Notes under the pieces: generated by a model
Database searches by the model: none
Told to the model about the DNA's origin: nothing
Seen by the model: only the letters and a program-made list of their open reading frames with translations
Origin: an uncultured Gammaproteobacteria bacterium
GTDB lineage: Bacteria; Patescibacteriota; Microgenomatia; JAMCZE01
DNA: 64,000 nt
Assembly: GCA_964641255.1 (NCBI GenBank)
Contig: CAZXMM010000001.1
Span: forward strand, 409,984-473,983
Direction: 5' to 3'
Program-made: the position numbers and the translations under genes
Part shown: positions 9,791 through 60,688 of the stretch, piece by piece
Layout: each line of letters starts with the position of its first letter
Numbering within the stretch: the stretch's first letter is position 1

Positions 9791-9791
9791 T

Positions 9792-44932: not shown

Positions 44933-45675
44933 CTAAGGTATTGGTCTAGTGGGGTTCCTCGCTCTAACTTTAAGCTCTTGATATCCGTGGTCTGTTTCCT
45001 TCCGAGAAGTTTTCTGACGATAACAATAGGATTAATAAAATTAAGCGAGTACCAGAGGTTATCTCCTAAGAATCGGTAGTGTTTTATTCCAAGTTTTAGG
45101 GCCAATTGTCGCCACTCAGATCTAGTGTAGGGATACTCTTCTCCTACTTTCCAAAGTTTGGCCATTTCAGCCGCTACCTTAAAGAAACGATAGGGCAGGT
45201 TATAGGCATTTGGGACCGAGATAATAGCGATGCCCTGTGGTTTGAGCAGATCAAAATGAGCTTGATTGATTGTCAGACGCCTTTCACCACTAAAATGTTC
45301 GGTGAGGCCAAATGACATGGCTATATCAAATTTTCCCTTCAGTTCTTTAGGCAGATTAAGGGCATCGGCCTGAATGAATGTGGCCTGTAGTCCATTATGT
45401 TTAAAGAAGGATTTTGCCCTTGATAGTGCTTTGGGAGAATAATCCAGGATCGTTACTTTAGCGCCGTTTTTGGCCATGAGAGCCGCGTTGGTACCAGCTC
45501 CCGCTCCTATTTCAATCACTTGTAAGTCCTTTGCAAAGCTAAAGTGGCTATTGACTAAGGAAAGAATCCGTTGCCAGCGAATCGACAGTTCTTCTTGAGC
45601 TAAGTTAAATCGGTCTTCATTAGGCGTGACATCTCTCCATAGTTTATCCCATAGCTCAGGTGAGTTTTGTGTCAT
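44899..45675 (-). CDS. Class I SAM-dependent methyltransferase
   Basis: Motif I VIEIGAGAGTNAALMAKNGAKVTILDYS, then FDIAMSFGLTEHF. Start placed at the internal ATG (MTQNSPELW; the ORF is open to 45852) to leave a 51-bp divergent spacer before the ABC permease gene. Confidence 0.75.
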   Translation of the reverse strand: MTQNSPELWDKLWRDVTPNEDRFNLAQEELSIRWQRILSLVNSHFSFAKDLQVIEIGAGAGTNAALMAKNGAKVTILDYSPKALSRAKSFFKHNGLQATFIQADALNLPKELKGKFDIAMSFGLTEHFSGERRLTINQAHFDLLKPQGIAIISVPNAYNLPYRFFKVAAEMAKLWKVGEEYPYTRSEWRQLALKLGIKHYRFLGDNLWYSLNFINPIVIVRKLLGRKQTTDIKSLKLERGTPLDQYLSYSLVFVGFKD

Positions 45676-45726
45676 AAGACTTACTAGAGATAATACACCA
45701 AAATCGCTATACTTACGCCTGAGAAT

Positions 45727-46548
45727 ATGATTAAGCCGATTATCATTCGTCCTAGTGAGCCGTGGTGGAAAATTGATTTTGCCGAAATTTGGCAGTATAA
45801 AAATTTGTTGTATGTTCTGGCTTGGCGTGATGTAACTGTTAGGTATAAGCAAACAGTTCTCGGGATTCTCTGGGCAGTTTTTCAGCCGTTGGTGACGACA
45901 GGTATTTTTAGCATCTTCTTTGGAACCATCGCCAAAATTCCTTCCGATGGACTGCCTTACCCACTGTTCACTTTCATCGGCCTTGCTTTGTGGAATTTTT
46001 TTTCAAGTGGAATAGCAAATGCCAGCAACAGTCTCATTACTAACGCGAGTATAATTACTAAGGTATATTTTCCCAGGTTTTTAGTTCCCTTTGCTTCAAT
46101 TGCTACATCTGGTGTCGATTTTGCCATTACACTTTTATTAGTTCTGGTAGCAATTTTATTATATGGCTACATACCCTCGATCCAAACTTTATACGTCTTT
46201 CCCATGCTTTTAGTAATTCTTGTTTTAGCCATGGGAGGACTGGGTCTAATGACAGCAGCGATCAATATTAAATTCCGCGATGTCCGTTATATTCTGCCTT
46301 TCTTCATTCAAATTGGTTTGTACATTACGCCAATTATTTATCCATTATCTGTGATTCATGATTATAGGCGGTGGATTTTAATGTTGAATCCTATGACGGC
46401 AGTTATTGAGAGTAGCCGTGCTTTGGTTAATTCAGCCTCATTGGATTGGCTAATGATTTCGATTGGGTTTTTAGTTGCCTTGGGGTTATTTATCCTTGGG
46501 CTCTATTTATTTAGGAAAACAGAATATTTATTTGTTGATATATCCTAA
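45727..46548 (+). CDS. ABC-2 type polysaccharide/teichoic-acid exporter permease (Wzm/TagG-like)
   Basis: 273 aa with 6 TM helices. N-terminal WRDVTVRYKQTVLGILWAVFQPL is the ABC-2 family signature. Confidence 0.8.
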   Translation: MIKPIIIRPSEPWWKIDFAEIWQYKNLLYVLAWRDVTVRYKQTVLGILWAVFQPLVTTGIFSIFFGTIAKIPSDGLPYPLFTFIGLALWNFFSSGIANASNSLITNASIITKVYFPRFLVPFASIATSGVDFAITLLLVLVAILLYGYIPSIQTLYVFPMLLVILVLAMGGLGLMTAAINIKFRDVRYILPFFIQIGLYITPIIYPLSVIHDYRRWILMLNPMTAVIESSRALVNSASLDWLMISIGFLVALGLFILGLYLFRKTEYLFVDIS

Positions 46549-46550
46549 CA

Positions 46551-47768
46551 ATGCAACCTATTATTGAAGTTAAAAATCTATCAAAGAAATATAGCTTAGG
46601 TTCATATCAACCTTACGAAACCCTTCGAGATACTATAGTAAGCTTATTTAATAAGCAGGGACTACACTCTAATAAATTAAAAAAACAAGAATTCTGGGCA
46701 CTAAAGGACATTAATTTTGAAGTACAAAAAGGCGAAGTTATTGGCATTATCGGCAGAAATGGGGCAGGCAAAAGTACCCTTCTTAGAATTCTAAGTCGAA
46801 TAACGCTTCCGACAGAAGGCGAAGCAATTATGCATGGACGGGTGGCCAGTCTGTTGGAGGTGGGAACGGGATTTAGTCCCGAGCTAACAGGCCGGGAAAA
46901 CATTTTTTTAAATGGTGCAGTTTTAGGGATGGGGCGCAAAGAAATCCAACGAAAATTTCAGGCTATCGTTAATTTTGCTGAAATAGGCAAGTTCATTGAC
47001 ACACCAGTCAAATACTATTCATCAGGGATGTATACCAGGCTAGCTTTTGCAGTAGCGGCTCATCTAGAGCCCGAGATTTTGATCGTTGACGAAGTATTGT
47101 CAGTTGGGGATTTAAGATTTCAAAAGAAGTCTTTAGGAAAGATTGAAGATTTGACCCATGCGGAAGGAAGGACAGTTTTGTTTGTTAGCCATAATATGGG
47201 AGCTGTAAACCAATTATGTCGTCATACTATTCTTTTGGATGGTGGAAAAGTGGTGTTTTATGGAGCTACAGAGGAAGCCATTCGGTTGTATTCGCTGCAG
47301 AGCTTTGATAAAAACCAATTTAAAACTGTGCTTCAGGGGGATTTAGCGACTACACTAAAGCTAACCCAGATTTTTATTAACAATAAAGAGGCTAATAATC
47401 AGGTGCTATTGCCGAATCAAAGCATTGAATTTAAGGCGAAATTTAAGAGTAAGAAGAAAAACTCTAACCTAGTCATTAATTTTTCGTTATATAAAGATGG
47501 TCAGAGGCTTTTTACATTAAGTGATACAGAAAACCCGAGAGATCAACCCACAGGAAATTTTATCTCCGAATTTCAAATTCCAAGCTACTTATTACGTCCA
47601 GGTTATTATTCCATTGCCTTGGGTGGGTATCGTGTGGGCAGTGGTGAGTGGTGCTGGGGTACCGATTTAGCAGGATTTACCATAGCAGAGGTTTGGGACA
47701 GGAAAAATATACAAACTAACTTAGGAATTTTCAATCTACCCAATTATGGGCAACGAAAAAATGAATAA
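46551..47768 (+). CDS. ABC exporter ATP-binding protein (Wzt/TagH-like) with about 150 aa C-terminal extra domain
   Basis: Walker A GRNGAGKST, signature YSSGMYTRLAFAVA, Walker B ILIVDEVLSVGD. The C-terminal 150 aa (YKDGQRLFTLSD...GYYSIALGGYRV) is beta-rich, as in Wzt carbohydrate-binding domains. Confidence 0.8.
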   Translation: MQPIIEVKNLSKKYSLGSYQPYETLRDTIVSLFNKQGLHSNKLKKQEFWALKDINFEVQKGEVIGIIGRNGAGKSTLLRILSRITLPTEGEAIMHGRVASLLEVGTGFSPELTGRENIFLNGAVLGMGRKEIQRKFQAIVNFAEIGKFIDTPVKYYSSGMYTRLAFAVAAHLEPEILIVDEVLSVGDLRFQKKSLGKIEDLTHAEGRTVLFVSHNMGAVNQLCRHTILLDGGKVVFYGATEEAIRLYSLQSFDKNQFKTVLQGDLATTLKLTQIFINNKEANNQVLLPNQSIEFKAKFKSKKKNSNLVINFSLYKDGQRLFTLSDTENPRDQPTGNFISEFQIPSYLLRPGYYSIALGGYRVGSGEWCWGTDLAGFTIAEVWDRKNIQTNLGIFNLPNYGQRKNE

Positions 47769-48492
47769 ACAAAGAAAGGTAATTACGAGAAGAACATGCT
47801 TTCCCCTTTGGGATGTAATTTTATTACACAACAAAATAGAAAACTTACCTCGTTTATTTAGGGCTATGGAATTATTTTTATGGGAATTCGCCTTCTTTAC
47901 CAGCGTCAATCGTCACGAACCAGTTGATAAAAACTTACAGCCTGTCCCGTGGTTAACGTATCCTGCTATCGAATTTTTAAACAGATTAAATTTTAAATCT
48001 AAATCGGTTTTTGAATTTGGGGCAGGTAATTCCTCACTTTATTTTTCAGGAAAGGGTGCTAGTGTTTTCAGTGTTGAGAGTGATTTACACTGGTATAATA
48101 GGCTTAGTCTCAGGATAGCTAATAATAACAAGCTTTATTACGCCAAAACCAAGAAGGAATATCTAGAGTCAATTAAAAAACCAAGGACAAAATTTGATGT
48201 AGTTCTAATCGATGGGCTTTATAGGTATAGCAGTTCTTCATTAGCAATCAAATATCTCAAACCAACCGGTTTTATTATTTTGGATAATAGCGAGTGGTTT
48301 CCTAGGGCGTTTGCCCAGCTCGAAAGTTGTGGGTTTACGCACGTCGACTTTAGTGGCTTTAGCCCATTTAATGACTACACACTTACCACCTCAATTTTTT
48401 TTAAAAAGTCTAGTTCCTTTGATTTTGATTCTGATAAAAATGCTCACTACTCGATTGGCTCGATAAAGCACATTTCCCCCGAGGACCGTTAA
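47761..48492 (+). CDS. Putative SAM-dependent methyltransferase (class I fold)
   Basis: FEFGAGNSSLYFSGKGASVFSVESD (G-x-G motif I) and VVLIDGLY (motif post-I/II). ATG at 47761 overlaps the ABC ATPase stop (ATGAATAA). Confidence 0.5.
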   Translation: MNKQRKVITRRTCFPLWDVILLHNKIENLPRLFRAMELFLWEFAFFTSVNRHEPVDKNLQPVPWLTYPAIEFLNRLNFKSKSVFEFGAGNSSLYFSGKGASVFSVESDLHWYNRLSLRIANNNKLYYAKTKKEYLESIKKPRTKFDVVLIDGLYRYSSSSLAIKYLKPTGFIILDNSEWFPRAFAQLESCGFTHVDFSGFSPFNDYTLTTSIFFKKSSSFDFDSDKNAHYSIGSIKHISPEDR

Positions 48493-48502
48493 GTTATTAA
48501 TC

Positions 48503-49375
48503 ATGAAGATTTATATTTTGCCAGTCGATAAGGAATTGCAACCGCACAAACAACCTTTTAAGTATCCAAAACATAACAATTTTTATGGTGTTGAGCAGGA
48601 CTTTTATGCATTTTTAACTACACATCGTCAGTTGTTGACAACTGATGAAAATAAGGCTGATTGGCATTATCTACCGATTTATTGGACACGACGACATCAT
48701 AATAAAGGTACTAGCAATGCGGCCCTTAAAGAATTGCAAGAAAAAGTTGACAAAATCATAGTAAACTCAAAAAAAACCTTTACCATTTGCCAGTATGATG
48801 ATGGACCTATGGTCAAATTAGGCAAAGGACAAGTTTTTCTATCCTCAAGAAAGTCGTACGTTGGCCTTGATATTCCTTTATTATCCGCGACTCATCGGTT
48901 TCCGCTGTTTAAACAATCAAAAAAGTATTTAGCTTCCTTCGTTGGAAGATTCTCAACACACCCTATACGACAGAGAATGGCTGAAAAGCTGAGTAACAGA
49001 CCTGGTCTTTTTATTAAAGACGGTGAGATCTCAGAAGGCGACTTTGTTAAGTTGATTCTAAGATCATATGTTTCGCTTTGCCCCCGAGGCTATGGGGGAA
49101 GTTCTTTTAGATTTTTTGAATCTCTGCAGTTAGGTGTTGTTCCTTTAATGATAGGTAATGTAGATACGAGACCCTTTAAAGAGTTTATTGACTGGAATGC
49201 TATTTCTTTTTTTGCTCGCGACGAAAACTCTGCCCTAGCTATTTTAGAAAAAGCAAATCTTAAACAGCTACTCAATATGGGTCAGAGAGCGCTGTCATTT
49301 TATCGATCAGATCTAGACTATGGCAAATGGTGTAAATACGTTATTATGGAACTGAAAAGGAGACAGTCTCAATAG
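48503..49375 (+). CDS. Exostosin-like (GT47 family) glycosyltransferase
   Basis: C-terminal LCPRGYGGSSFRFFESLQLGVVPLMI matches the exostosin-family consensus C-P-x-G...S-x-R-x-x-E-x-x-x-x-G-C/V-x-P-V. Confidence 0.5.
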   Translation: MKIYILPVDKELQPHKQPFKYPKHNNFYGVEQDFYAFLTTHRQLLTTDENKADWHYLPIYWTRRHHNKGTSNAALKELQEKVDKIIVNSKKTFTICQYDDGPMVKLGKGQVFLSSRKSYVGLDIPLLSATHRFPLFKQSKKYLASFVGRFSTHPIRQRMAEKLSNRPGLFIKDGEISEGDFVKLILRSYVSLCPRGYGGSSFRFFESLQLGVVPLMIGNVDTRPFKEFIDWNAISFFARDENSALAILEKANLKQLLNMGQRALSFYRSDLDYGKWCKYVIMELKRRQSQ

Positions 49376-49496
49376 TCTAGACCTTACTAAACATTATCGC
49401 CGGCACATGCCAGCAAAATTGTGAAAGTTCGAGTCCTGAAAAGAAATATAAAATAATTGTTATTAGTCAAACTGTTTTTATAGAAATCATAAAAAG
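49376..49496. promoter_or_regulatory. Largest intergenic spacer in the locus (121 bp, AT-rich); putative internal promoter / operon boundary
   Basis: Sequence ...gaaatataaaataattgttattagtcaaactgtttttatagaaatcataaaaagATG. The flanking genes are otherwise overlapping or separated by fewer than 15 bp. Confidence 0.35.
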
Positions 49497-50366
49497 ATGA
49501 TAAATCTAAGTTTTTTTATCCCTGCCTATAACTGCGCGACAACCATTGCAGAAGCTGTTGATTCAATTTTCAAGGCTAATTTTGTTAAGGGCGATGAAGT
49601 AATTATTGTGGACGACTGTTCAACTGATCGGACACTAAGAGCTATAACGGCTCAGATGAAAAAGCACCCCGAAATTTTATTGCTAAAACATCCGTTCAAT
49701 AAGGGCGCTGGTGCGGCACGGAACACGGCAATTGAACAAGCTCGGAACAAGCTAGTCTTTTGTTTAGACTCGGACAATTTGCTAGTTCCCAATAGCGTAA
49801 GACCGCTACTTGCCTATCATATCGAAACTAAGTCTGACGCCAGTGCCTTTCAACAGTTGCATTTTTTCAAGAAAACTCCCAGGCATGTTACCCATAAATG
49901 GACATTTCATCCTGGTGTGTATACTCTATCTGAACATCTTTCAAAGTCACAGCTTCCTGGAGCAAGTGGTAATTATTTATTCTCGAAGCAGGCTTGGCTT
50001 AGGGCGGGTCGTTATCCAGAGTTTGTTGGGGCATTAGATTCTTGGTCTTTTGGCTTGCGTCTTCTCGCCACCGGTTCGAAGATGTCAGTCTTTGAGAATA
50101 CGCATTACTTCCATCGCTTTGGCCATGAATCAGATTGGGTGCGGTATTCTCAAAAAAAACACTTTTTTTCTTTAGCTGCTTTGCAGGTAATTATTCCTTT
50201 CCTGGACTTGCTTGATCCGAAGGACATTGAATATATTATGAGTAAAAAAGGAAGGTACAATTGGTTTGAGCACATAGAAAAAAGGCCAATTCGCCTCAGA
50301 AAAACACCGATACAAAGTAGCCGTATCAGAGAGCTAATAAATAAATTAGGTAGTATTAAATCATGA
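49497..50366 (+). CDS. GT2 family glycosyltransferase
   Basis: FIPAYNCATTIAEAVDSI, VIIVDDCSTDRT and CLDSDN. Confidence 0.75.
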   Translation: MINLSFFIPAYNCATTIAEAVDSIFKANFVKGDEVIIVDDCSTDRTLRAITAQMKKHPEILLLKHPFNKGAGAARNTAIEQARNKLVFCLDSDNLLVPNSVRPLLAYHIETKSDASAFQQLHFFKKTPRHVTHKWTFHPGVYTLSEHLSKSQLPGASGNYLFSKQAWLRAGRYPEFVGALDSWSFGLRLLATGSKMSVFENTHYFHRFGHESDWVRYSQKKHFFSLAALQVIIPFLDLLDPKDIEYIMSKKGRYNWFEHIEKRPIRLRKTPIQSSRIRELINKLGSIKS

Positions 50367-51010
50367 GACTACATTTAGGATGTGGAGAAAATTATTTGAA
50401 GGGCTATTGTAATATCGATTTTTCATCGACGCATCATACAGTTCAAAAAAAAGGTGTGGCTGACAGATATGCCAATATTCTCAACTTAAAATATAAGAAA
50501 AGTTCAATTGAAGAAATACGACTGCATCATGTTTTTGAGCACTTTTCTCGAGCTATAGCTTGTGCATTATTGGTTAGTTGGCATTCATGGCTAGAGATTG
50601 GGGGACTTCTCAGAGTTGAAGTTCCTGATTTTGAAAATACTAGTAAGATTTTTGGTAGACTCCTTTCTACTGAACACCAAAGAAATGTCGCAATGCGACA
50701 TATTTTCGGGTCACAGGAAGCTAGCTGGGCAGTGCATTATACAGGTTGGACTGAAAAGACCCTGACTGCTCTTCTTAATAAGCTCGGGTATTCCATTGAG
50801 AAAGTAAATAGATTTACATACAAAGGAACATCAAATCTGGAAGTTTTCGCGCGTAAAGCGCAAAATGATCTTTCAAACGACGCTTCCACTAAAGTAGTCA
50901 AAAGTTTTCTGAAATCTTTCACTCTTGACGGATCTACATCTGAAAAAGAGATTTTATCTGTTTGGCTAAGTGAGTTTAAAAGCCAAGTAGCTAAAGGAGT
51001 ACGGAAGTGA
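50363..51010 (+). CDS. Putative class I SAM-dependent methyltransferase
   Basis: N-terminal MRLHLGCGENYLKGYCNIDF (LxLGCG motif I), then HVFEHF. Confidence 0.5.
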   Translation: MRLHLGCGENYLKGYCNIDFSSTHHTVQKKGVADRYANILNLKYKKSSIEEIRLHHVFEHFSRAIACALLVSWHSWLEIGGLLRVEVPDFENTSKIFGRLLSTEHQRNVAMRHIFGSQEASWAVHYTGWTEKTLTALLNKLGYSIEKVNRFTYKGTSNLEVFARKAQNDLSNDASTKVVKSFLKSFTLDGSTSEKEILSVWLSEFKSQVAKGVRK

Positions 51011-51741
51011 AAGGTGTCAGCGTGGTTATCCCCACTTATAATCGGGAAAAGTTTTTAACGGCAACCATAAATAGTGTACTTAAACAGACTGTCCCCGTTT
51101 TGGAGATTCTGGTTTGTGATGATGGGTCAATGGACCACAGTCGTCAGGTGATAAAGAAAATTGGCAGTACAAAGGTCCACTGGATTGCTGGATCCCACAC
51201 CGGATTGCCAGCTGTAGCAAGAAATCGAGGTATTGAACGGTCAAAAGGGGAGTTGATTGCATTTTTGGACAGTGATGATACCTGGCTACCAGAAAAAATG
51301 GCCAGGCAACTACCTTTTTTTGACGACCCCAAAGTACTAGGGGTAAGCGCGAATGCTTTACGGATGGTGAAAACTATTGAGAGTGGTCGTGTTATCGTTG
51401 GAAACAATAGCAATCTTTCTGTTGCTTCTCTTTTGTTCCAAAATTCAGTCATCTGCAGTTCAATGGTGGTTCGTCGATCTGCCTTGGAAGCTACTGGGGA
51501 CTTCTCTGAAAAAAATTCACTACGAGGATTTGAAGACTATGCCCTTTGGCTTAGGGTGGCAGCCCTTTTTCCGATCAGCTTTGTTGCCGAGCCGCTAGTT
51601 CGTTATCGTGACGAGTTTCAAGACAGTCTGCGTTATGAGTCCGAAAGGGATGTTGTGAAGCAAAAACTTGAAGTATTAAAAAATTTTCTTCCCTGGCTAA
51701 TTTACCATTTTCCATTAATTATTTCATACCACATGCAATGA
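51007..51741 (+). CDS. GT2 family glycosyltransferase
   Basis: GTG start. VSVVIPTYNREKFL, LVCDDGSMDHS and FLDSDDTWLPEK. Confidence 0.75.
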   Translation: MKGVSVVIPTYNREKFLTATINSVLKQTVPVLEILVCDDGSMDHSRQVIKKIGSTKVHWIAGSHTGLPAVARNRGIERSKGELIAFLDSDDTWLPEKMARQLPFFDDPKVLGVSANALRMVKTIESGRVIVGNNSNLSVASLLFQNSVICSSMVVRRSALEATGDFSEKNSLRGFEDYALWLRVAALFPISFVAEPLVRYRDEFQDSLRYESERDVVKQKLEVLKNFLPWLIYHFPLIISYHMQ

Positions 51742-53450
51742 TTGAGATTGGATTATTGGTTGTGGCAACAGGTAAATATATTCAATTTGTCGATCCTTTA
51801 TGGAAGTCAACTAAAAGGTACTTTCTTAAGCAACGCAATATCAGAGTAACTATGTTTGTTTTTACTGATTCTGATACTGTTCCAGCTGGAACTAAACGCC
51901 TGTTTTGGGAACATCGCGCCTTCCCCTTCGCCACTCTTCTTAGGTACCATGTGTTTACAAAGTACCAAAAGACCCTAAAGAAGATGGACTACCTCTTCTA
52001 TTGCGATGCTGACATGGAATTTGTTTCACTAGTAGGCGAAGAGATTCTTGGTAAACGAGTCGCCACCCTTCACCCAGGCTTTTATACTAAAGCTCGAAAA
52101 GATTTTACTTATGAAAATAATTCTAAGTCGACTGCCTATATTTCTCCTGATCAAGGGAAAGCGTATTATTGCGGTGGTTTCAATGGGGGAGAGGTAAAAG
52201 AATTTTTGAATATTGCCCGGATTCTAAAAAGGAATATTGATAAAGATTTGAAAAATGGCATTATCGCTTCACATAACGATGAAAGCCACTATAATTGGTA
52301 TCTCGCTAAACACCTTCCCACGTTGGTTCTTTCACCCTCATACTGCTATCCAGAAGATCTCTTACCAGCGGTTCGGGCGAAAGATCTGAAAAGCGGGATT
52401 AATAAGTTAATTTGGTTTCCGAAGCAACTGTTGGAACTAAAACCAAAATTAATCGCCAGAAGCAAAGACCATAGCAAAATTCGGTATACCGGGATTCGAC
52501 TGTTAATCGAAACACTTATCCAGTCTAAAGAAGTTCTTTTCCTGAAGGGTTTTACTATTCTTAACAGGGTTAGAGTTGAATGGGTTAGGCTAAAATGGCA
52601 CTACTTAAGATTGAAGGAGCAAAGCTATCGTAATTATCTTTTGCAACCGCCTATAAAGGTTATTCAGGTCTCACAAAATAGCGCTGCTAACAGAATGCTC
52701 CTCGTCACAGTGGCCTTTAATTGCGTCTGGACTATAGAGGCGCAAATAGATGCTTTAAAAAAGAACCTTCAGGATCCTTTTACTCACATAATAATTGATA
52801 ATTCTAGTGATAGTGCTAGACGATCAGAAATAGAACAAGTGGCTCGCACAAAGGGGGTGGGTTACATCTCTTTGCCGAAAACACCTTCACATATTTCACC
52901 GAGCATGTCTCATGGACTAGCTCTCAATTATGCTTGCAACTGGACTAGTAAGCACCTTGCGAAGTATGTAGTAATTGGCTTTTTGGATCATGATATTTAT
53001 CCATTCAAGTCGACAAATCTATTTCCAATTATGAAAAAGCAGCCCTTTTACGGCCTCTTACAAAATAGAGAAGAAAAGTGGTACTTATGGCCGGGCTTCA
53101 TGTTTTTTAATAGAGATTTCAGCAACAGTAAGCAAATAAATTTTCTTCCTCAAAATGGTCTTGATACTGGTGGAAGGAATTGGGAATCTATCTACCGCCA
53201 CATAGAAAAATCTTCAATTGAATTTCCCCAGCAGTTTTACGTATCCCTCAGTGACTATAAAAAGCTTCGCAATATTAATGCATTTCCTAAAATACCAATT
53301 TCCAAAAAGAATCAGCTAGTGAAAAAAGATCAATTAATAGAGATAATAGATAGCTGGGTGCATGTGTTTAATGCGTCGAATTGGCGAAAAGCAAATGATA
53401 AGGAAAAAGAAGTTAAAGAATTCTTACTATGGCTAAACAAGCATTCATAA
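51738..53450 (+). CDS. Two-domain glycosyltransferase: N-terminal GT6 domain (ABO blood-group / alpha-1,3-Gal(NAc) transferase family) fused to a C-terminal GT-A (GT2-like) domain
   Basis: N-terminal half aligns motif by motif with mammalian/bacterial GT6: FVFTDSD, DYLFYCDADMEFVSLVGEEILGKRVATLHPGFY, FTYENNSKSTAYISPDQGKAYYCGGFNGGEV and NDESHYNWYLAKHLPTLVLSPSY. C-terminal half (from about aa 300) reads LLVTVAFNCVWTIEAQI...IIIDNSSDSARR...YVVIGFLDHDIYPF, which looks GT-A. Confidence 0.8.
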   Translation: MIEIGLLVVATGKYIQFVDPLWKSTKRYFLKQRNIRVTMFVFTDSDTVPAGTKRLFWEHRAFPFATLLRYHVFTKYQKTLKKMDYLFYCDADMEFVSLVGEEILGKRVATLHPGFYTKARKDFTYENNSKSTAYISPDQGKAYYCGGFNGGEVKEFLNIARILKRNIDKDLKNGIIASHNDESHYNWYLAKHLPTLVLSPSYCYPEDLLPAVRAKDLKSGINKLIWFPKQLLELKPKLIARSKDHSKIRYTGIRLLIETLIQSKEVLFLKGFTILNRVRVEWVRLKWHYLRLKEQSYRNYLLQPPIKVIQVSQNSAANRMLLVTVAFNCVWTIEAQIDALKKNLQDPFTHIIIDNSSDSARRSEIEQVARTKGVGYISLPKTPSHISPSMSHGLALNYACNWTSKHLAKYVVIGFLDHDIYPFKSTNLFPIMKKQPFYGLLQNREEKWYLWPGFMFFNRDFSNSKQINFLPQNGLDTGGRNWESIYRHIEKSSIEFPQQFYVSLSDYKKLRNINAFPKIPISKKNQLVKKDQLIEIIDSWVHVFNASNWRKANDKEKEVKEFLLWLNKHS

Positions 53451-54070
53451 ATGTAACATACGAATCTCTTGTCACACCACCACTTGCTATTGGTGCGTGG
53501 ATACGAAAGGATTTTCCTGGTTTTGATAGGGATTACTTGGCAATCCATTGTTTAATCAGAAAGTATCAGCCCAAAACTTTCCTTGAAATTGGAACAAGCA
53601 CGGGGTTGGGAACCAAAGTAATTTGTACAGCTATTGGGATTAGGAAAGCCCATTGGTGGAATTTATTTGGTTCCCACGACGTATCAACACCAAAGGTTTT
53701 TTCAATCGATGTACCTCCAGGTACTGATCCAACAATTATTTATCCCGCAAAAGAAGACGGTCACCCAGATAAGACAGGAAAATACTGCAAATTTCCCTTC
53801 ACGCAGCTATTTGGCGACTCCCAAACATTTAATTTTAAACCGTACTATCCATTAGATGGTTGGTTCATCGATGGCAAACATAACTTTGAATTTGCTAGTA
53901 AGGATACAAGACAGGCTTTGAAGGCTAAAGCTAAGATAATTATCTGGCATGATATGCAAATCGAAGATGTTGCTCGTGCTGTAGAAATCGTTATGAGAAA
54001 GCAGAAACGATATAGCTGTTATCGTGTTGCGCAAACTCGAATCGCTTTCGCTGTACGCAAGATATCATAA
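53429..54070 (+). CDS. Class I SAM-dependent methyltransferase (CmcI/TylF-like O-methyltransferase fold)
   Basis: FLEIGTSTGLGTKVI (motif I), DGWFIDGKHNFE and IIIWHDM. Confidence 0.55.
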   Translation: MAKQAFINVTYESLVTPPLAIGAWIRKDFPGFDRDYLAIHCLIRKYQPKTFLEIGTSTGLGTKVICTAIGIRKAHWWNLFGSHDVSTPKVFSIDVPPGTDPTIIYPAKEDGHPDKTGKYCKFPFTQLFGDSQTFNFKPYYPLDGWFIDGKHNFEFASKDTRQALKAKAKIIIWHDMQIEDVARAVEIVMRKQKRYSCYRVAQTRIAFAVRKIS

Positions 54071-54957
54071 TGATTATTGTCAAATTAGTGGGTGGCCTGG
54101 GAAACCAAATGTTTCAATACGCGACCGCCCGCGCTCTTGCCGAAAGACACCGTTGTGAATTAAAGCTAGATACTAGTTGGTTCCGCAAGCCTGGATCAGA
54201 TACCCGCCGTTCTTACGGTCTAAGAGTTTTCAATACCGTTAAGGCCCAAGCCACGAAACGGGAAATTAATGCTGTCAAACATCGGAGCGGAAACAAATTG
54301 GACCGAATATTAAGAAGCCATTTTCGGGGTTTTTTTCCGTTGCGTAAAAGCTATTTCTTTGAAGAAAGCGCTCTTCATTTTAGCCCGGAAGTCCTTAAAC
54401 TGACCGATAATTCTTATTTGGAAGGCTTCTTTCAGTATTTGGCGTATTTTCAATCGATTGAAAAAATATTGCAGGATGAATTTCAGTTTATTAAGCAACC
54501 CAACAAGAAAAACAAGCTAATTTTAGATAAAATAGAGATACAAAATTCAGTGTCTGTCCATATCAGGAGAAAAGACTATATTTCTAATAAAAATTATCGT
54601 AGTTATTTTGCCCATCCTAGTAGGCTATATTATAAAAAGGCTATGGAAATGATTAATCGAAAAGTGCCCAGTCCTGACTTCTATATTTTTTCTGATGATA
54701 TACCTTGGGTAAAAAAGCATTTTAAAAATAATCATAACATGCATTTTATTTCCCATAATAAAGGGAAAAACGATTTTGAAGACATGAGACTTATGCAAAG
54801 CTGTAAACACAATATCACTGCCAATAGCTCCTTTAGCTGGTGGGCAGCATGGTTGAACCAAAATCCTCACAAGATCGTAATTACCCCCCGTAAATGGTAC
54901 CAAGACAAATTAGCCGAAATGACTGGGAAGTTTCCTCCTAATTGGACAAAGCTATAA
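54070..54957 (+). CDS. GT11 family alpha-1,2-fucosyltransferase
   Basis: Diagnostic GT11 motifs: MIIVKLVGGLGNQMFQYATARALA, SVHIRRKDYIS and ANSSFSWWAAWLN. Confidence 0.85.
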   Translation: MIIVKLVGGLGNQMFQYATARALAERHRCELKLDTSWFRKPGSDTRRSYGLRVFNTVKAQATKREINAVKHRSGNKLDRILRSHFRGFFPLRKSYFFEESALHFSPEVLKLTDNSYLEGFFQYLAYFQSIEKILQDEFQFIKQPNKKNKLILDKIEIQNSVSVHIRRKDYISNKNYRSYFAHPSRLYYKKAMEMINRKVPSPDFYIFSDDIPWVKKHFKNNHNMHFISHNKGKNDFEDMRLMQSCKHNITANSSFSWWAAWLNQNPHKIVITPRKWYQDKLAEMTGKFPPNWTKL

Positions 54958-54960
54958 ATT

Positions 54961-55764
54961 ATGAAACCACTCATTTCTTATAAGAAAAACGTGTTCTCCC
55001 AGAATGGTGAAGACGGAATTATTGCAGAAATTTTTAGACGTTTGAGGGTGGATAGTGGAGTTTGTATCGAATTTGGGGCTTGGGATGGAATTCATCTAAG
55101 TAATATCCGTAATCTGGTTATAAACGGTTGGACTGGAATATTTATTGAATCCGATAAGGAAAGGTTTAATCAACTAAAAAAGAATTATGCACAAAATAAA
55201 AATGTTATAAGCATTAACGCTACTGTCGGCTCTGGTATAAATAGCCTCCGAGCTATCTTTAGAAGAAAAGGTATCTCACTTTATTTAAATAAAATAGATT
55301 TTTTGAGCATAGATATTGATGGCCTGGATCATCATATTTTTGAGTCGTTAGATTTTAATCCTAAATTAATCTGTATTGAAGCAAATTCTGCCTTTTCACT
55401 AAATGAAAGTCTAAACCAAACTCTCTATTCGAAGGAAACGGGGAGATCTCTTCAATGCTTAACCACGATTGGTGAGTCTAAAAACTATGTTCTCATTTGC
55501 TTCACGGGCAATTGCCTTTTTTTAAGAAAGGATTTATTGGAGCAAACCAATTTGGAAGAGTTGTCTGTTAAAGAAGCTTACACAGCTTTCTTGGACTACC
55601 TAACAGAAAATGAGCGCCAATGGTTATTTCTAGTAAATCTAGGTTTAGTATTTCCGTACCGCCATTTCAAAAATACTTATCTTTCTCTTCAAAGTTTACA
55701 TTTATTGCCTCATCAAATTGCCCTCGCTATTGGCAAACTCTTAAGAGCTAAATTACTCGGATAA
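54961..55764 (+). CDS. FkbM-family methyltransferase (putative)
   Basis: N-terminal FSQNGEDGIIAEIF...GVCIEFGAWDG resembles the FkbM-domain start (SQxGED...DxGA). Confidence 0.45.
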   Translation: MKPLISYKKNVFSQNGEDGIIAEIFRRLRVDSGVCIEFGAWDGIHLSNIRNLVINGWTGIFIESDKERFNQLKKNYAQNKNVISINATVGSGINSLRAIFRRKGISLYLNKIDFLSIDIDGLDHHIFESLDFNPKLICIEANSAFSLNESLNQTLYSKETGRSLQCLTTIGESKNYVLICFTGNCLFLRKDLLEQTNLEELSVKEAYTAFLDYLTENERQWLFLVNLGLVFPYRHFKNTYLSLQSLHLLPHQIALAIGKLLRAKLLG

Positions 55765-55771
55765 TGGATTT

Positions 55772-56848
55772 ATGAATCGTTTTAAACCAGTAAAACTATC
55801 GGTAATAATGCCTGTATATAATGGTGCACTTTATCTACGAGAATCTATTGATAGCGTTCTTCGTCAGACCTTCACAAATTTTGAATTCATCATTATTGAT
55901 GATGGTTCTACTGATAAAACACAAGAAATTGTTGAGTCTTATTCTGATTTACGAATTAAGCTAGTAAAAAACTCTAAGAATTTAGGAATAGTTGACAGCC
56001 TGAATATTGGTCTGGTTAAAGCAACTGGTGAGTACGTCATCAGAGTAGACGCCGATGATATCTGTGTTAGAACTCGTTTTGAGAAGCAGGTTAAGTTTAT
56101 GGATGGTCACCCTACAGTGGGTGTTTGTGGAAGTGCCATAAGGATTTTTTCTAGAATTCCTGTGATTGGTATGACAATTGTAAAGCCTGTTAGCCATCGT
56201 GAGATCGTCTCGGAAATGCTTTTTCGCAATGTTATCCAACACCCAACTGTCATTTTGAGGAAAAACCTTTTCCAAAAGTACAAGCTTCGCTACCGGAGTT
56301 TATATCCACATGCGGAAGATTATGATTTGTGGTCCCGGGCCGGTAGGCTTTTTGATTTGGCAAATCTTCGTGAAGCCTTGTTGTATTACCGCTATCATTC
56401 AAAATCGATAGGCGCTACTTCTAATATCGTTCAACAAGCTAATGTTAGACAAGTCAGGCAAGAATATTGGAAATCATTGGGCATCAAACTTGATCCCGAC
56501 GAAATTGCTTTATTGCACAGTGTCTGCGACCTGTCTGTTGCTCCGATAGACGAGTTTACAGCTGCAAAGGTAGGAGCAGCCTTGTTAAGCTTTCAGTCCC
56601 AAGTGAATAAAAAAAATCTCTTTCCGCCGAAGTTTATTTCTAAACATACCTCCAAGCAGTGGTACGCTTTTTGTGCCAAACTCTCCACTCTTGGCCTAGT
56701 GGCCTGGAGATTATATTGGCAGTCTCCTCTTAGCAAAGCGGCAGCTTTGAGCATTTCAGATCGATTAATTTTCCTAATGCATTGTTCATTAAAAATGAGC
56801 GACTTTACTCTCCAAAGGAAACTTGCCAGACTGATTGCCGGTTGGTAG
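55772..56848 (+). CDS. GT2 family glycosyltransferase with about 120 aa C-terminal extension
   Basis: LSVIMPVYNGALYL, FIIIDDGSTDKT and RVDADDI. Confidence 0.8.
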   Translation: MNRFKPVKLSVIMPVYNGALYLRESIDSVLRQTFTNFEFIIIDDGSTDKTQEIVESYSDLRIKLVKNSKNLGIVDSLNIGLVKATGEYVIRVDADDICVRTRFEKQVKFMDGHPTVGVCGSAIRIFSRIPVIGMTIVKPVSHREIVSEMLFRNVIQHPTVILRKNLFQKYKLRYRSLYPHAEDYDLWSRAGRLFDLANLREALLYYRYHSKSIGATSNIVQQANVRQVRQEYWKSLGIKLDPDEIALLHSVCDLSVAPIDEFTAAKVGAALLSFQSQVNKKNLFPPKFISKHTSKQWYAFCAKLSTLGLVAWRLYWQSPLSKAAALSISDRLIFLMHCSLKMSDFTLQRKLARLIAGW

Positions 56849-56857
56849 TCTCAATAT

Positions 56858-58033
56858 ATGAAAATACATACGATAGAGAAAATTGGCTCCGAAAACAGTT
56901 TACGGCTGCAATTTCCCATAACCTTTGACGGCAAGGAAAGGAACTTCCCTACTGCTTTGTATTATCAAATAGAGAAAAAATTTGAATCCTTGTTAAGTTT
57001 AAATAGCGACAGTGCTCTGGTGGCCATGCTCCTTTTGGCAATGAACCTTAAAGAGGATATCTTTGTGGAAGGATCCGTTTCAGAACAATTGATTAATAAT
57101 TTGCTGAAATATCAAGATATTGTTCATGAATGGTTTCCCAAAACCTTCTACAAAATAAAAATATCTGCCGAGCACATTGTTAGCGAAACTAAATTGAAGA
57201 ACAAAGCCGTGGGGATGGGTTTCTCTGGAGGTGTAGATTCCTTCTACACTCTTTGGAGCCATCTTGCCCCGCAAGAAAAAGATGCTTCAAAGAGGGTGAC
57301 CCACGGGATCTTTGTTCATGGTTTTGATTTTTCTCTGCCTAAAAGAGCCAGCTATGATCGCGCCTATGAGGCCTACAAGGTAATGCTTGAAAGCCTTGGC
57401 CTTACTCTAATTGGTGTGGAGACTAACATCAGGCAGTTCACTGATTATTACAGTTGGGAGATGGCCCATGGCTCCGCCCTGGGAAGTTGTGCCTTACTGT
57501 TTGAAAAAGTTTTTGGCACTTTTTACATTGCCTCGTCAGATGTTCCAGCGGCACTTAAGCCACTTGGCTCGCACCCCGACCTTGATCCACTGTTATCTAG
57601 CAATCAGATGACGGTAGTTCATGATGGATTGCAAAGTTCAAGGGTAAAAAAGATAAAAGCCCTTATCACCTGGCCACTCACTTACGATAATCTTCGGACT
57701 TGTTGGAGAAATCAGGACGGAGTGAAGAATTGTGGGCGGTGTGATTATTGTCTGCGGGTAATGGCAATCCTGGAAGCATTTGGAGTTTTAGGAAAGTACA
57801 CAACCTATCCTCCCTCGTTCTCTTATAACAGCTTAATAAATGCTCAATTTGTCTCAAAAAATCGCCAAATAATTGCCGACGAGATTATTGCTCTGGCTAA
57901 GAAGAATCATAATGAAAAACTCGCCGGTGCAGTAAAACGGGCTAAAGAGCGTGGTGCCCTGCTTTTTAAAATCAAACCACTTACTGACTTTGTTGACCAG
58001 ACGATTTATCACCTTATGCATAAGTACCAATGA
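56858..58033 (+). CDS. QueC/ExsB-like PP-loop ATP pyrophosphatase with C-terminal Cys cluster and about 110 aa N-terminal extension; putative sugar amidotransferase/amidoligase
   Basis: PP-loop GMGFSGGVDSFYTL (SGGxDS). C-terminus TCWRNQDGVKNCGRCDYCLRVMAILEAFG matches the QueC zinc-site pattern C...CGxCxxCxxR...G. Confidence 0.5.
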   Translation: MKIHTIEKIGSENSLRLQFPITFDGKERNFPTALYYQIEKKFESLLSLNSDSALVAMLLLAMNLKEDIFVEGSVSEQLINNLLKYQDIVHEWFPKTFYKIKISAEHIVSETKLKNKAVGMGFSGGVDSFYTLWSHLAPQEKDASKRVTHGIFVHGFDFSLPKRASYDRAYEAYKVMLESLGLTLIGVETNIRQFTDYYSWEMAHGSALGSCALLFEKVFGTFYIASSDVPAALKPLGSHPDLDPLLSSNQMTVVHDGLQSSRVKKIKALITWPLTYDNLRTCWRNQDGVKNCGRCDYCLRVMAILEAFGVLGKYTTYPPSFSYNSLINAQFVSKNRQIIADEIIALAKKNHNEKLAGAVKRAKERGALLFKIKPLTDFVDQTIYHLMHKYQ

Positions 58034-59223
58034 CAATCATTCTTGACTGTGGTAGTTATCATTTGCAAAACCTCGGTGATATCGCCATGCTCCAAGTGAC
58101 TGAGCAGCAGATGAGAAAGTTTTGGCCCGAAGCAGGGATCTATGTTCTGACTCTCGTCCCCAAACGGTTGGCAGAATTTTGTCCACTAGCTTTGCCCTTG
58201 TCCACAGCGAGCCGTTATTTGTGGTTGGAACAACACCTCAAACGCATCAGCCATAAAGAACAGTGGGAGCAATTTCTTCATACCGCTGGTGCTCAAATTA
58301 CGGCTAAACCTGAAGAATTTAACCAAGTTTTTGCAAAGACCGATGCGGTAGTAGTCAGTGGCGGGGGCTTTATGAACGACATTTTTATCGATCACGCCAT
58401 TGATGTTTTAGATATGCTTGGGGAAGCCCAAAATCAGGGAAAGTGTACCGCGATGTTTGGTCAAGGATTTGGACCAGTGACTAATCCTGCTTTACTTGAG
58501 CGGATGAACCAGGTATTACCCCGTCTGGCAGTAGTAGGGCTACGGGAGAAATTATCCGGTCGTTCCTTAGTTAAAAATTTGGGGGTAACCGATCCCCAGA
58601 TTTTTGTGACCGGGGACGACTCTCTGGCTTTGGCTCCAAACAGAGAAAAACCAGGGGAGAGTATTGGGGTCAACTTGCGACTCTCCTACTATTCTGAGGT
58701 GACCCATAATCAAAGGCGAGCGGTAAAAGAAGCTGTTTTGGCTTTAACCGGGGAACTAGAAACTAAACTCGTTCCCTTGCCCATCTCTTTTTACCCGCAA
58801 GAGTCAGATGTTAAGAGTTTAACGTCTCTGTTTCCGGCCCAACTCTATCGCTACCCACTAGAGCGGGACGAAGAGTCGACTGTTCAATCAGCCTTGGCGC
58901 GCGCAGCTAGCTGTCGTACTGTTATTACTGGGAGTTATCATGGGGCGGTGTTTGCCCTGGCTTGCGGGGTTCCAGTAGTGGCACTGTCAGGCTCAACCTA
59001 TTATTTGGATAAATTTTTGGGTTTGGCAGATTTGTTTCCCGAAGGAGCGGTTCAAATTGTAGGTTTGGCCGATCGTTTTTTGCGTCTAAATCTGCAGTCG
59101 GCGACCAGAAAGGCCTGGGCTAAAGCCCATCTGCTAAAAGAGAAAATTTTACAAAGCGCAAAAGAACAAGCCCAACTGAGAGACCAAGCATATGAGAGGT
59201 TTTACGCTATACTTGAGCCATGA
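58030..59223 (+). CDS. Polysaccharide pyruvyl transferase family protein (CsaB/WcaK-like)
   Basis: N-terminal YHLQNLGDIAMLQV, then DAVVVSGGGFMNDIF. Both are characteristic of the PS_pyruv_trans family. Confidence 0.5.
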   Translation: MTIILDCGSYHLQNLGDIAMLQVTEQQMRKFWPEAGIYVLTLVPKRLAEFCPLALPLSTASRYLWLEQHLKRISHKEQWEQFLHTAGAQITAKPEEFNQVFAKTDAVVVSGGGFMNDIFIDHAIDVLDMLGEAQNQGKCTAMFGQGFGPVTNPALLERMNQVLPRLAVVGLREKLSGRSLVKNLGVTDPQIFVTGDDSLALAPNREKPGESIGVNLRLSYYSEVTHNQRRAVKEAVLALTGELETKLVPLPISFYPQESDVKSLTSLFPAQLYRYPLERDEESTVQSALARAASCRTVITGSYHGAVFALACGVPVVALSGSTYYLDKFLGLADLFPEGAVQIVGLADRFLRLNLQSATRKAWAKAHLLKEKILQSAKEQAQLRDQAYERFYAILEP

Positions 59224-60683
59224 AATCATTTTGGTTTGTTGCGCTTCTTTTGGTGGTCTCATTTAAACAATTGTTGTGGATTTCTGCTCTGCCAATCTTT
59301 CAGACGCCCGATGAACAGGCACACCTTGCCCAGCTGGCGTACTTAGCCGAACACCAGGTAACTAAAGTGCCAACCAATGTCGATTTATCCTTAGAAATTG
59401 CCACCACAGAAGAACTGCTTGGTACAAGACGTGATTCGTACGGCAATAATAAATTTACCTATCACCCTGAATTTAATATTACCTACAGTAAGGACCAAAC
59501 TGGAATCTTTGAAGTGGCGATGGCTACCCTTTCTGGGTCAGCAAGAACGGTATATGTGGGTGGGGAAGCAGCTCACTATCCACCACTCGGCTATGTGACT
59601 TCTCTACCATTCTATTATTTAGCCTATGATAGCTCGCTTATTGAGCGAATCTTTGCCTCTCGACTTCTTAATCTGATCATCCATCTTCTTCAGGTGCTGG
59701 TCGCCTATAAAATAGGTAAAACCATTTGGAAAAAGGAAAGGGAGGCTCTAGTGTTAGGCATTCTGGTTTCTTTTCAACCAATGATCTCCTTCGTGGCAGC
59801 GGGAATTCATCCGGATAACCTGCTTAATCTTTTGTACAGTTTGGGACTACTGTTTTTGTTGCGAGTTATCCGTGACGGGCTGCGCCTAAAACATCTTGTC
59901 GGCCTGGGTATAGTTCTAGTACTGGGTTTTTACACCAAACAACTCATTTTTCCGTTTTTTCCCCTAGCTCTGGCGACTCTGACCTATGTTCTACTTAAGA
60001 AAAAACGCCTGTTAGCTCTCGGCAGCTCCTTAGTCGTTCTTTTGGGACCAATCCCGCTATTTTTTGTTCCCATCTCGCTGCCCTATCTGCCTTTGGCTAC
60101 GGTCCATCATATTACGTTGCCCGAGTACCTTAATTTCCGGCTTAAGCGCCTAGTGTTTGAAATGTGGCCTTGGTACTGGGGAGTGTTTCGCTGGTTAAGT
60201 CTCGCCTTGCCCCGAGAAGTCATGCGACTAATTACCCGGGTGGCCCTGCTGGCAAGTGTAGGAATAGGTATCTATTTTTTGAAAGTAGTCACTAAAAGAC
60301 AACCGCTAACTTTTGAGGCCAAGGCGGCGATTCTTTTTCTGGTCTCGACCCTAACCTATATTATTTACCTATTCCTATGGGATTTTCGCTTAATGGACTA
60401 CTTGGGTTTTTCTCAGGGCCTCCAGGGCCGTTATCTATTCCCCAATATTGTGGCTCATCTAGCCCTGTTCCAACTAGGAATCATGACCTTGTTTAGCTTT
60501 AGAAAAAGACTGCAACAAGCGGTACTGGGTGTTTTAGCTGCCGCGATGGTGGGGCTAAATGTCGTTTCTTGGTGGCTCCTCTCCACGAGCTATTACGGAA
60601 CTGAGTGGCAGATGTTTCTGTTGCGCGCCTCACAGTACAAACCCGACTGGATTAAAGAAATGATCGGACTCCTGATACAATAA
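59220..60683 (+). CDS. Polytopic membrane protein (GT-C-like; PDE-motif loop), unknown family
   Basis: 487 aa with about 11 TM helices. First loop LPIFQTPDEQAHLAQLAYLAEHQ has the D-E pair typical of GT-C first loops. Confidence 0.4.
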   Translation: MKSFWFVALLLVVSFKQLLWISALPIFQTPDEQAHLAQLAYLAEHQVTKVPTNVDLSLEIATTEELLGTRRDSYGNNKFTYHPEFNITYSKDQTGIFEVAMATLSGSARTVYVGGEAAHYPPLGYVTSLPFYYLAYDSSLIERIFASRLLNLIIHLLQVLVAYKIGKTIWKKEREALVLGILVSFQPMISFVAAGIHPDNLLNLLYSLGLLFLLRVIRDGLRLKHLVGLGIVLVLGFYTKQLIFPFFPLALATLTYVLLKKKRLLALGSSLVVLLGPIPLFFVPISLPYLPLATVHHITLPEYLNFRLKRLVFEMWPWYWGVFRWLSLALPREVMRLITRVALLASVGIGIYFLKVVTKRQPLTFEAKAAILFLVSTLTYIIYLFLWDFRLMDYLGFSQGLQGRYLFPNIVAHLALFQLGIMTLFSFRKRLQQAVLGVLAAAMVGLNVVSWWLLSTSYYGTEWQMFLLRASQYKPDWIKEMIGLLIQ

Positions 60684-60688
60684 CTTTA

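Follow-up and report, generated by a model that had tools for sequence, protein, structure and literature searches.

A GT6 domain joined to a second predicted glycosyltransferase domain and encoded near a GT11 fucosyltransferase in a Microgenomates-group bacterium

The glycosyltransferases of family GT6 that are known belong mostly to vertebrates, to cyanophages and to a few Gram-negative bacteria that live in the gut or cause disease. The literature of 2014 held that the family was not found in archaea (PMC3961637) and that its bacterial members nearly always carry an NXN motif; a prokaryotic clade with DXD had been described from cyanophage P-SSM2, marine metagenome sequences and Parachlamydia (PMC3516806, PMC3961637). 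In Escherichia coli O86, WbnI (GT6), WbwK (GT11) and a GT2 beta-1,3-galactosyltransferase are encoded in one surface-polysaccharide cluster, where GT11 makes the H epitope and GT6 then caps it (PMC4202792). Here we describe a related locus in a 64-kb stretch of contig CAZXMM010000001.1 (the window). Its three central genes encode a protein with an N-terminal GT6 domain and a second, C-terminal domain (CTD), a probable methyltransferase (the middle gene) and a GT11 fucosyltransferase (Table 1). The GT6 gene overlaps the middle gene by 22 nt, the middle gene overlaps the GT11 gene by 1 nt and an upstream GT2 gene runs into the GT6 gene by 4 nt. The three genes are translationally coupled, tightly packed and part of one operon. 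The GT6/GT11 pair itself was already known. The literature searched describes GT6 or blood-group-like cassettes for neither Patescibacteria nor archaea, and the two-domain architecture, the CTD as partner and the distribution in bacteria of the candidate phyla radiation (CPR) and in archaea are unreported in it.

A first-pass annotation of the stretch had assigned a GT6 domain to the open reading frame (ORF) at 51738 and a GT11 enzyme to the second gene downstream, and both assignments held. The GT6 domain matched Pfam Glyco_transf_6 (PF03414) with E = 7.8e-43 and 146.9 bits (cutoff 25) over residues 2–210, and its best solved-structure matches were BoGT6a of Bacteroides ovatus (E = 4.5e-40) and human GTA (E = 1.2e-36). 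The motifs that had been quoted (DADMEF, LHPGFY, AYISPDQGKAYYCGGFNGG, NDESH, GGLGNQMFQYA, HIRRKDY and SSFSWWAAW) are all present in the translations. D90-A-D92 forms the DXD motif and aligns with D211-V-D213 of GTA and N95-A-N97 of BoGT6a. The catalytic pair D181-E182, within H179-N-D-E182, is likewise aligned with its counterparts (E303 in GTA, E192 in BoGT6a), and every aligned domain has DE or EE at this point. Throughout the family alignment the tail residues K243, H245 and R249 do not vary, and they correspond to K231, H239 and R243 of BoGT6a; in GT6 enzymes the C-terminal Lys and Arg (K346/R352 in GTA, K231/R243 in BoGT6a) close over the UDP diphosphate.

The D-A-D triad, which the first-pass annotation had singled out, is not exceptional among relatives of the domain, since DXD is found in 77 of 113 aligned homologous domains (N-forms in 36) and the prokaryotic DXD clade was already on record. 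Like the enzymes of this P-SSM2-type clade, the window domain is reduced to a minimal catalytic unit and keeps DXD intact. It is about 39% identical to the P-SSM2 enzyme over 97% of its length; the two share an xGG donor triad and a KPK..(K)DH...R tail, neither has the NK..YGG insert seen in the NXN clade, and P-SSM2 has a GT11 gene nearby. Unlike P-SSM2, which has Trp-His before the catalytic DE, the window domain has His-Asn, and it differs from the clade in being fused via a long helix to a second GT-A domain and in lying within a Wzm/Wzt operon of a CPR bacterium. Because it keeps DXD, as does the metal-dependent PaGT6 of Parachlamydia acanthamoebae (PMC3516806, PMC3961637), it probably needs a divalent metal ion such as Mn2+ or Mg2+.

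Residues associated with donor choice, which the first-pass annotation had suggested inspecting, point to N-acetylgalactosamine (GalNAc) over galactose (Gal). At the positions that distinguish human GTA from GTB, as defined in PMC4202792, the window domain is GTA-like in three of four: Arg60 at 176 (Arg in GTA, Gly in GTB), Gly114 at 235 (Gly, Ser) and Gly147 at 268 (Gly, Ala), with Cys145, a small residue matching neither enzyme, at 266 (Leu, Met). Its donor triad is thus C145-G-G147; the GalNAc transferase BoGT6a has AGG at 266–268. By the criteria of PMC3516806, which separate enzymes with a 2'-fucosylated acceptor from alpha3GalT, all three acceptor markers, His112 (A1), Gly114 (A2) and Ala240 (A7), are of the GTA/BoGT6a type. 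The A7 position was set by the family alignment and by an end-to-end profile alignment to BoGT6a; its residue is Ile228 in BoGT6a, Ala in GTA/B and Trp in alpha3GalT (PMC3516806). Together the specificity residues predict an A-type GalNAc transferase acting on a fucosylated acceptor to give GalNAc-α1,3-(Fuc-α1,2)Gal.

BoGT6a is a metal-independent blood-group-A synthase (PDB 4AYJ/4AYL/4CJ8). It has in common with the window domain the catalytic Glu, a tail with Lys, His and Arg, the residues His, Gly, Phe, Thr and Tyr of the acceptor site, and the xGG donor triad, which is consistent with UDP-GalNAc as donor; it differs in having NAN for DAD, in its independence of metal, in keeping Trp189-His190 and in having a single catalytic domain. 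Human GTA and GTB have the DXD motif and a small residue at A7 in common with the window domain, and the equivalents of Arg176, Gly235 and Gly268 are the same as in GTA. The window protein differs from them in being without a transmembrane or stem region, in its Cys at 266, in having His-Asn for Trp300-His301 and in its extra C-terminal glycosyltransferase domain.

The product of the third gene is a member of GT11, a fucosyltransferase predicted to be alpha-1,2-specific. It matched Glyco_transf_11 (PF01531) with E = 5.7e-35 and 121.4 bits (cutoff 23.9), and more than 7,800 full-length homologues had 41–46% identity; those labelled at NCBI are named alpha-1,2-fucosyltransferase, by annotation only. 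Among 120 homologues, H164, R166, D169 and Y170 of the HxRRxDY motif (H164-I-R-R-K-D-Y170) are invariant and R167 is kept in 118, while the GGLGNQMFQYA and SSFSWWAAW blocks are each at least 95% conserved. No sequence-level match to a solved structure was found for this protein.

We propose that the 570-residue GT6 protein is bifunctional, consisting of the GT6 domain, a long basic helix and a second GT-A domain. The first-pass annotation had overlooked this CTD, as it had the conserved middle gene and the Wzm/Wzt operon around the module. The full two-domain architecture is common to about 28 proteins, in whose alignment the CTD is strongly conserved, with invariant D354-N-S356, S391-H-G393, D417-H-D419 (the DXD), W448-Y-L-W451, D476-T-G-G479, W540/H542 and S547/W549. 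A pseudogene or assembly chimera was considered for this ORF and rejected, as the architecture recurs in these independent sources and the catalytic residues are all kept. AlphaFold modelled the CTD as a GT-A fold with DXD (mean predicted local distance difference test, pLDDT, 90.1; predicted template-modelling score, pTM, 0.88), and Foldseek aligned it with GT-A enzymes at probability 1.0, TM-score about 0.45 and at most 17% identity. The full-length model (pLDDT 85.6) has two globular domains bridged by helix 252–302, with an uncertain domain orientation given its pTM of 0.53.

The family to which the CTD belongs is large, with 792 representative clusters that are mainly stand-alone proteins of 250–300 residues. 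There is no Pfam model for it: PF00535 (GT2) scored the CTD at 15.3 bits, below its cutoff of 23.3, and two stand-alone relatives barely pass (23.5 and 28.4 bits). No PDB chain was matched to the CTD half of the profile. The CTD is a member of a sizeable GT-A family that has neither a Pfam or CAZy-style assignment nor a solved relative. It has other partners elsewhere, namely a homologue of the 244-residue GT2 of the window (GT2_244, at 51007–51741) in P0054 and P0055, a homologue of the 358-residue GT2 (GT2_358) in P0072, and GT6 plus a GT2 in P0021 and P0025. Between the domains, residues 250–322 are basic and hydrophobic (12 Lys or Arg, 4 Asp or Glu). No transmembrane segment was found in the 570-residue protein, in which hydropathy over 19 residues reaches at most 1.25. 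The linker may be a segment for peripheral membrane association, as a basic-hydrophobic membrane-binding (BHB) region described for bacterial GT6 (PMC3516806) offers an analogy.

We then compared nine independent loci that carry GT6 (L001–L004 and L006–L010, without L005; Table 1). GT11 was beside, near or fused to GT6 in all nine, four proteins (P0032, P0052, P0098 and P0118) are themselves GT6 and GT11 fusions, and the two genes are clustered in cyanophages P-SSM2 and B23. This co-occurrence, together with the fusions, indicates functional coupling in one pathway. L001 is collinear with the window at 50–57% identity, and the Gammaproteobacteria label of its metagenome-assembled genome (MAG) is probably wrong. 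As to the window itself, the named best matches of a housekeeping-type Dpm1-like GT2 (365–1114) all belong to the Microgenomates group of Patescibacteria (Candidatus Microgenomates, a Patescibacteria-group bacterium, Microgenomates bacterium GW2011_GWA1_48_10 and Candidatus Blackburnbacteria), which by sequence places the bacterium in this CPR group.

A tenth locus, that of P0055 (L011), is collinear with the window but has no GT6. Its order is Wzm, Wzt, the 289-residue GT2 (GT2_289), the 215-residue ORF, GT2_244 fused to a CTD, an orthologue of the middle gene, GT11 and GT2_358. The backbone thus appears to be a conserved operon for a fucosylated glycan to which GT6 is an add-on, suggesting that GT6 is an accessory activity providing a terminal decoration. 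This would fit GT6 acting after GT11.

Several side observations concern these and other relatives. The archaeal MAG LFW-28 carries two separate GT6–GT11 pairs, one of them with Gmd and Fcl about 5 kb downstream. In L006, an 85-residue GIY-YIG ORF (14229–14486) lies between fcl and gmd and could be a homing-endonuclease-type insertion. L008 encodes a 1,115-residue protein of several methyltransferase domains (10951–14298) one GT2 gene away from its GT11-GT6 fusion; the same contig encodes MCH and CcmH and is not CPR-like. GT6 homologues that are 41–43% identical to the window domain, and that slightly outscore the cyanophage P-SSM2 enzyme, are encoded in two unannotated genomes labelled 'uncultured phage': LR756502.1, of 642 kb, and LR745206.1, of 635 kb.

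The model that we favour, with moderate confidence, is that GT11 and then GT6 act in sequence on a glycan exported by Wzm/Wzt, so that a galactose fucosylated in the H manner is capped with GalNAc as in blood group A. GT11 would transfer L-fucose from GDP-fucose, most likely in alpha-1,2 linkage, onto a beta-galactoside to give an H-type disaccharide. The GT6 domain, predicted to be retaining, would add an alpha-1,3-linked hexosamine (GalNAc by prediction) to the galactose already fucosylated by GT11, and the product would be a blood-group-A-like trisaccharide. The CTD would attach a further sugar to the same chain, with the galactose acceptor or the next backbone residue as candidate sites, and neighbouring GT2 enzymes and methyltransferases would complete and modify the glycan ahead of export. 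E. coli O86 uses the Wzx/Wzy route, whereas the window locus has Wzm/Wzt. The O86 cluster also differs in having no GT6 fusion, while the window has no GDP-fucose genes, and WbnI belongs to the NXN bacterial group and transfers Gal (PMC4202792). The first-pass annotation had proposed the same order, H epitope first and then Gal or GalNAc; the coupling and the A-type residues bear it out in part.

Several observations weigh against the model. The Trp that stacks against the acceptor (W300 in GTA, W189 in BoGT6a) is highly conserved and touches the acceptor in all solved GT6 structures (PMC3516806); here it is His179, and the His that contacts O6 of the donor is Asn180. The His-Asn pair (HNDE or HNEE) occurs in 4 of the 113 domains, compared with WHDE in 80, and such rare residues at contact positions mean that the substrate specificity may have shifted. 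His179 is a departure from a conserved feature and not from a CAZy defining criterion, and GT6 membership stands, even with an NCBIfam Gltr_6 score of 196 bits, under the full-length cutoff of 250. In the fucosyltransferase, Lys168 is atypical, the residue being Gly in 101 of the 120 homologues. The GT11 family also holds an alpha-1,3-fucosyltransferase (PMC4202792), so we infer the alpha-1,2 linkage rather than observe it. No initiating phosphoglycosyl transferase was found in the 64-kb window. Nor did tblastn find a gmd or fcl homologue (E > 4) in the window, the part that was searched, and to that extent the doubt that the first-pass annotation had tied to a missing GDP-fucose supply applies. 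In related loci this supply is close at hand: Gmd and Fcl adjoin GT11 in L006 (Nomurabacteria), L009 and the archaeal L002. A curated model with a cutoff of 415 bits confirms Gmd in L006, where it scores 556, and in L002, where it scores 474; for Fcl of L006 the score is 494 bits, slightly under the cutoff of 500.

The substitutions at 179 and 180, which are rare and lie at contact positions (PMC3516806), could belong to a diverged GT6 that uses another donor or a non-H acceptor. GT6 and GT11 would then decorate one polymer at separate positions, and the glycan would be fucosylated and not A/B-like. We regard this as possible, though somewhat unlikely. Also in its favour are an insert of about 24 residues (about 209–233) near the acceptor site, which in the family alignment only the closest subgroup has, and the Cys at 266, and the many methyltransferases hint at methylated sugars. 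Set against it, His112, Gly114 and Ala240 fit the enzymes with fucosylated acceptors and differ from alpha3GalT, the other three donor positions are GTA-like, and for the near-universal linkage of GT6 to GT11, with the fusions, the best explanation is that the two enzymes act one after the other on a single galactose.

A further proposal, compatible with the sequential model, is that the GT6–CTD protein is a polymerase that alternates two transfers into a repeating backbone, in the manner of bifunctional glycosyltransferases from other ABC-transporter-dependent pathways. Each repeat would be fucosylated by GT11, and a polymer of A-like units would result. The presence of two GT-A domains per chain with a long helix between them is in keeping with this, as are the Wzm/Wzt exporter, with its weak Wzt_C carbohydrate-binding signal, and the recombination of the CTD with differing glycosyltransferase partners from the same locus type. 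WbbM (PDB 6U4B) and the K4CP chondroitin polymerase (PDB 2Z86) offer a likeness in their two glycosyltransferase domains per polypeptide and Wzm/Wzt-type export pathway, and both are among the GT-A structural neighbours of the CTD. However, the CTD is no more similar in structure to known polymerases than to GT-A enzymes that make single transfers. Loci L006 and L009 also encode a Wzy_C protein and the window has Wzx-like genes, which makes assembly by repeat units equally possible. We consider a polymerase unlikely.

The first-pass annotation had suggested host-glycan mimicry or lectin-targeted surface display. Taken as imitation of vertebrate histo-blood-group antigens by a bacterium living with an animal, or as display aimed at the lectins of such an animal, this is very unlikely. 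In its favour, the predicted product is A-like, and true A/B antigens are produced by the characterized GT6/GT11 pairs of H. mustelae, B. ovatus and E. coli O86 (PMC4202792, PMC3516806). Against it, the genome is that of a Microgenomates-group CPR bacterium with a methyltransferase-rich Wzm/Wzt operon that suggests a modified epitope, and the GT6 motifs are those of the prokaryotic DXD clade and not of the NXN clade of gut and pathogenic bacteria. The module is moreover shared with environmental CPR bacteria including Nomurabacteria, with an uncultured archaeon and with marine cyanophages. The GT6/GT11 pair is a general microbial glycan module, and a pairing so widespread in microbes is no evidence for animal-host mimicry.

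Across the window and its relatives, DXD-type GT6 paired with GT11 is a mobile module that is common among uncultured CPR bacteria and present in at least one archaeon, and GT6 can supply one of the two halves of a bifunctional enzyme. Loci that are collinear but differ in whether they have GT6 provide a natural experiment on the diversification of a terminal glycan epitope. If the product were confirmed, ultra-small episymbionts would carry A-like epitopes unrelated to vertebrate mimicry, which would bear on the proposed prokaryotic origin of ABO. A bolder extension, which we offer as speculation with little expectation that all of it is right, is that an A-like glycan, methylated and perhaps polymeric, is built by the bifunctional GT6/GT-A protein, exported by Wzm/Wzt and displayed on Microgenomates-group CPR bacteria and on some archaea, and that gain or loss of GT6, as between the window and L011, amounts to an ABO-like polymorphism of A versus H. 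Were this so, phages that recognize the glycan, or the microbial hosts to which the episymbionts attach, might be what drives the polymorphism.

The middle gene probably encodes an S-adenosylmethionine (SAM)-dependent methyltransferase (Methyltransf_24/CmcI-like), on weak functional support: the PF13578 Methyltransf_24 match (E = 6e-4, 21 bits) is under the cutoff of 26.3, and searches of PDB and PHROG with the protein gave no match. Its place just after the CTD is conserved, an orthologue with 52% identity lying right downstream of the CTD gene in L011. This orthologue is better evidence for the gene than its similarity to the Methyltransf_24 domains fused to GT6 in P0006 and P0026, for which a Rosetta-stone orthology was rejected at marginal E values of 0.005 and 5e-4.

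The three genes appear, with reasonable though not strong probability, to form the core of an operon of about 45.7–63.4 kb for an ABC-transporter-dependent (Wzm/Wzt) glycan presumably located at the cell surface. Besides Wzm and Wzt it contains five GT2 genes, a GT47-like gene, a GT4 gene, a pyruvyl transferase, DUF2142 and Wzx-like genes and four to six methyltransferase-like genes. Wzm and Wzt are kept alongside the module in L001, L004, L006, L009, L010 and L011; the C-terminal extension of Wzt matched the Wzt_C profile weakly (E = 0.001, 19.5 bits, cutoff 30.4), and none of the several methyltransferases is assigned as a chain terminator. The two upstream GT2 genes of 289 and 244 residues matched Pfam GT2 with E = 5.8e-29 and 1.7e-30, and the 215-residue ORF between them (50363–51010), conserved by synteny, has a PHROG methyltransferase match (E = 2.4e-5). 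The position of GT2_358 right downstream of GT11 is conserved in related loci. DUF2142 and Polysacc_synt mark the distal end of the module, in an order kept in L001, L004 and L007, and DUF2142 is found in L010 as well.

Table 1. Positions of the features of the window and arrangement of the related loci that carry GT6
Feature	Source	Position	Strand	Length, evidence or arrangement
GT6 + CTD protein	window	51738-53450	+	570 aa
GT6 catalytic domain, aa 1-251	window	51738-52490	+	PF03414, PDB alignments, motif census, family alignment
Inter-domain linker, aa 252-302	window	52491-52643	+	AlphaFold: one long helix, pLDDT 52-78
CTD, GT-A fold, aa ~318-570	window	52689-53450	+	alignment, AlphaFold, Foldseek
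Middle gene, probable SAM-dependent methyltransferase	window	53429-54070	+	213 aa
GT11 fucosyltransferase (predicted alpha-1,2)	window	54070-54957	+	295 aa
Wzm (ABC-2 permease) + Wzt (ATPase, C-terminal extension)	window	45727-47768	+	PF01061 E 3.6e-20; PF00005 E 1.3e-22
GT2 (289 aa), 215-aa ORF (methyltransferase-like), GT2 (244 aa)	window	49497-51741	+	directly upstream of GT6, 4-nt overlaps
GT2 (358 aa)	window	55772-56848	+	PF00535 E 1.2e-37
DUF2142 membrane protein + Polysacc_synt (MOP/Wzx-like) protein	window	59220-61906	+	Pfam E 1.3e-16 and 5.3e-13
L001	CAZNUP010000001.1, 709,729-bp MAG contig labelled Gammaproteobacteria			GT6-CTD + GT11, one module
L002	uncultured archaeon LFW-28	9989-11774		single-domain GT6 ~250 bp from GT11
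L003	uncultured archaeon LFW-28	9201-10612		single-domain GT6 directly abutting GT11
L004	Logan assembly			GT6-CTD + GT11, one module
L006	Candidatus Nomurabacteria, GCA_026395965.1			GT6-CTD, GT2, GT11, then Fcl, Gmd
L007	Logan assembly			Methyltransf_24-GT6-CTD fusion, then GT11
L008	Logan assembly			GT11-GT6 fusion, single polypeptide
L009	JGI metagenome			layout as L006
L010	Logan assembly			GT6-CTD, then GT11 directly

Methyltransferase-like genes occur at unusual density across 44899–63445, and their number suggests methylated sugars. Clear class-I methyltransferases are encoded at 44899–45852 (minus strand) and 62660–63445; weak or sub-threshold ones are the 215-residue ORF (PHROG), the middle gene (Methyltransf_24) and 54961–55764 (FkbM), and 47746–48492 is suspected from a motif alone. 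A 290-residue ORF at 48503–49375 has an Exostosin/GT47 domain (E = 4.8e-20). GT47 is chiefly a eukaryotic family, which makes this ORF unusual for a CPR bacterium. Within 56858–59223, a 391-residue ORF has the motif GFSGGVDS, which is PP-loop-like, and matches a QueC-like PHROG family weakly (E = 7e-6). It is followed in the same operon by a polysaccharide pyruvyl transferase (PF04230, E = 3e-31), and the glycan may be pyruvylated too.

The G+C content is 0.36–0.40 over 46–56 kb, the part from Wzm/Wzt to GT6 and GT11, versus 0.43–0.45 in the remaining window. Either horizontal acquisition or the usual low G+C of variable surface-glycan loci could account for the drop. Searches for tRNA genes and Rfam elements gave no match in the window. 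At its other end, 365–36693 contains more than 15 membrane glycosyltransferase-like ORFs of 480–790 residues that match Pfam PMT_2, YfhO or PTPS_related. Ahead of these paralogues lie two Dpm1-like GT2 genes (365–1851) and a GtrA-like ORF (1835–2299), a layout resembling a multiplied three-component system for extracytoplasmic glycosylation.

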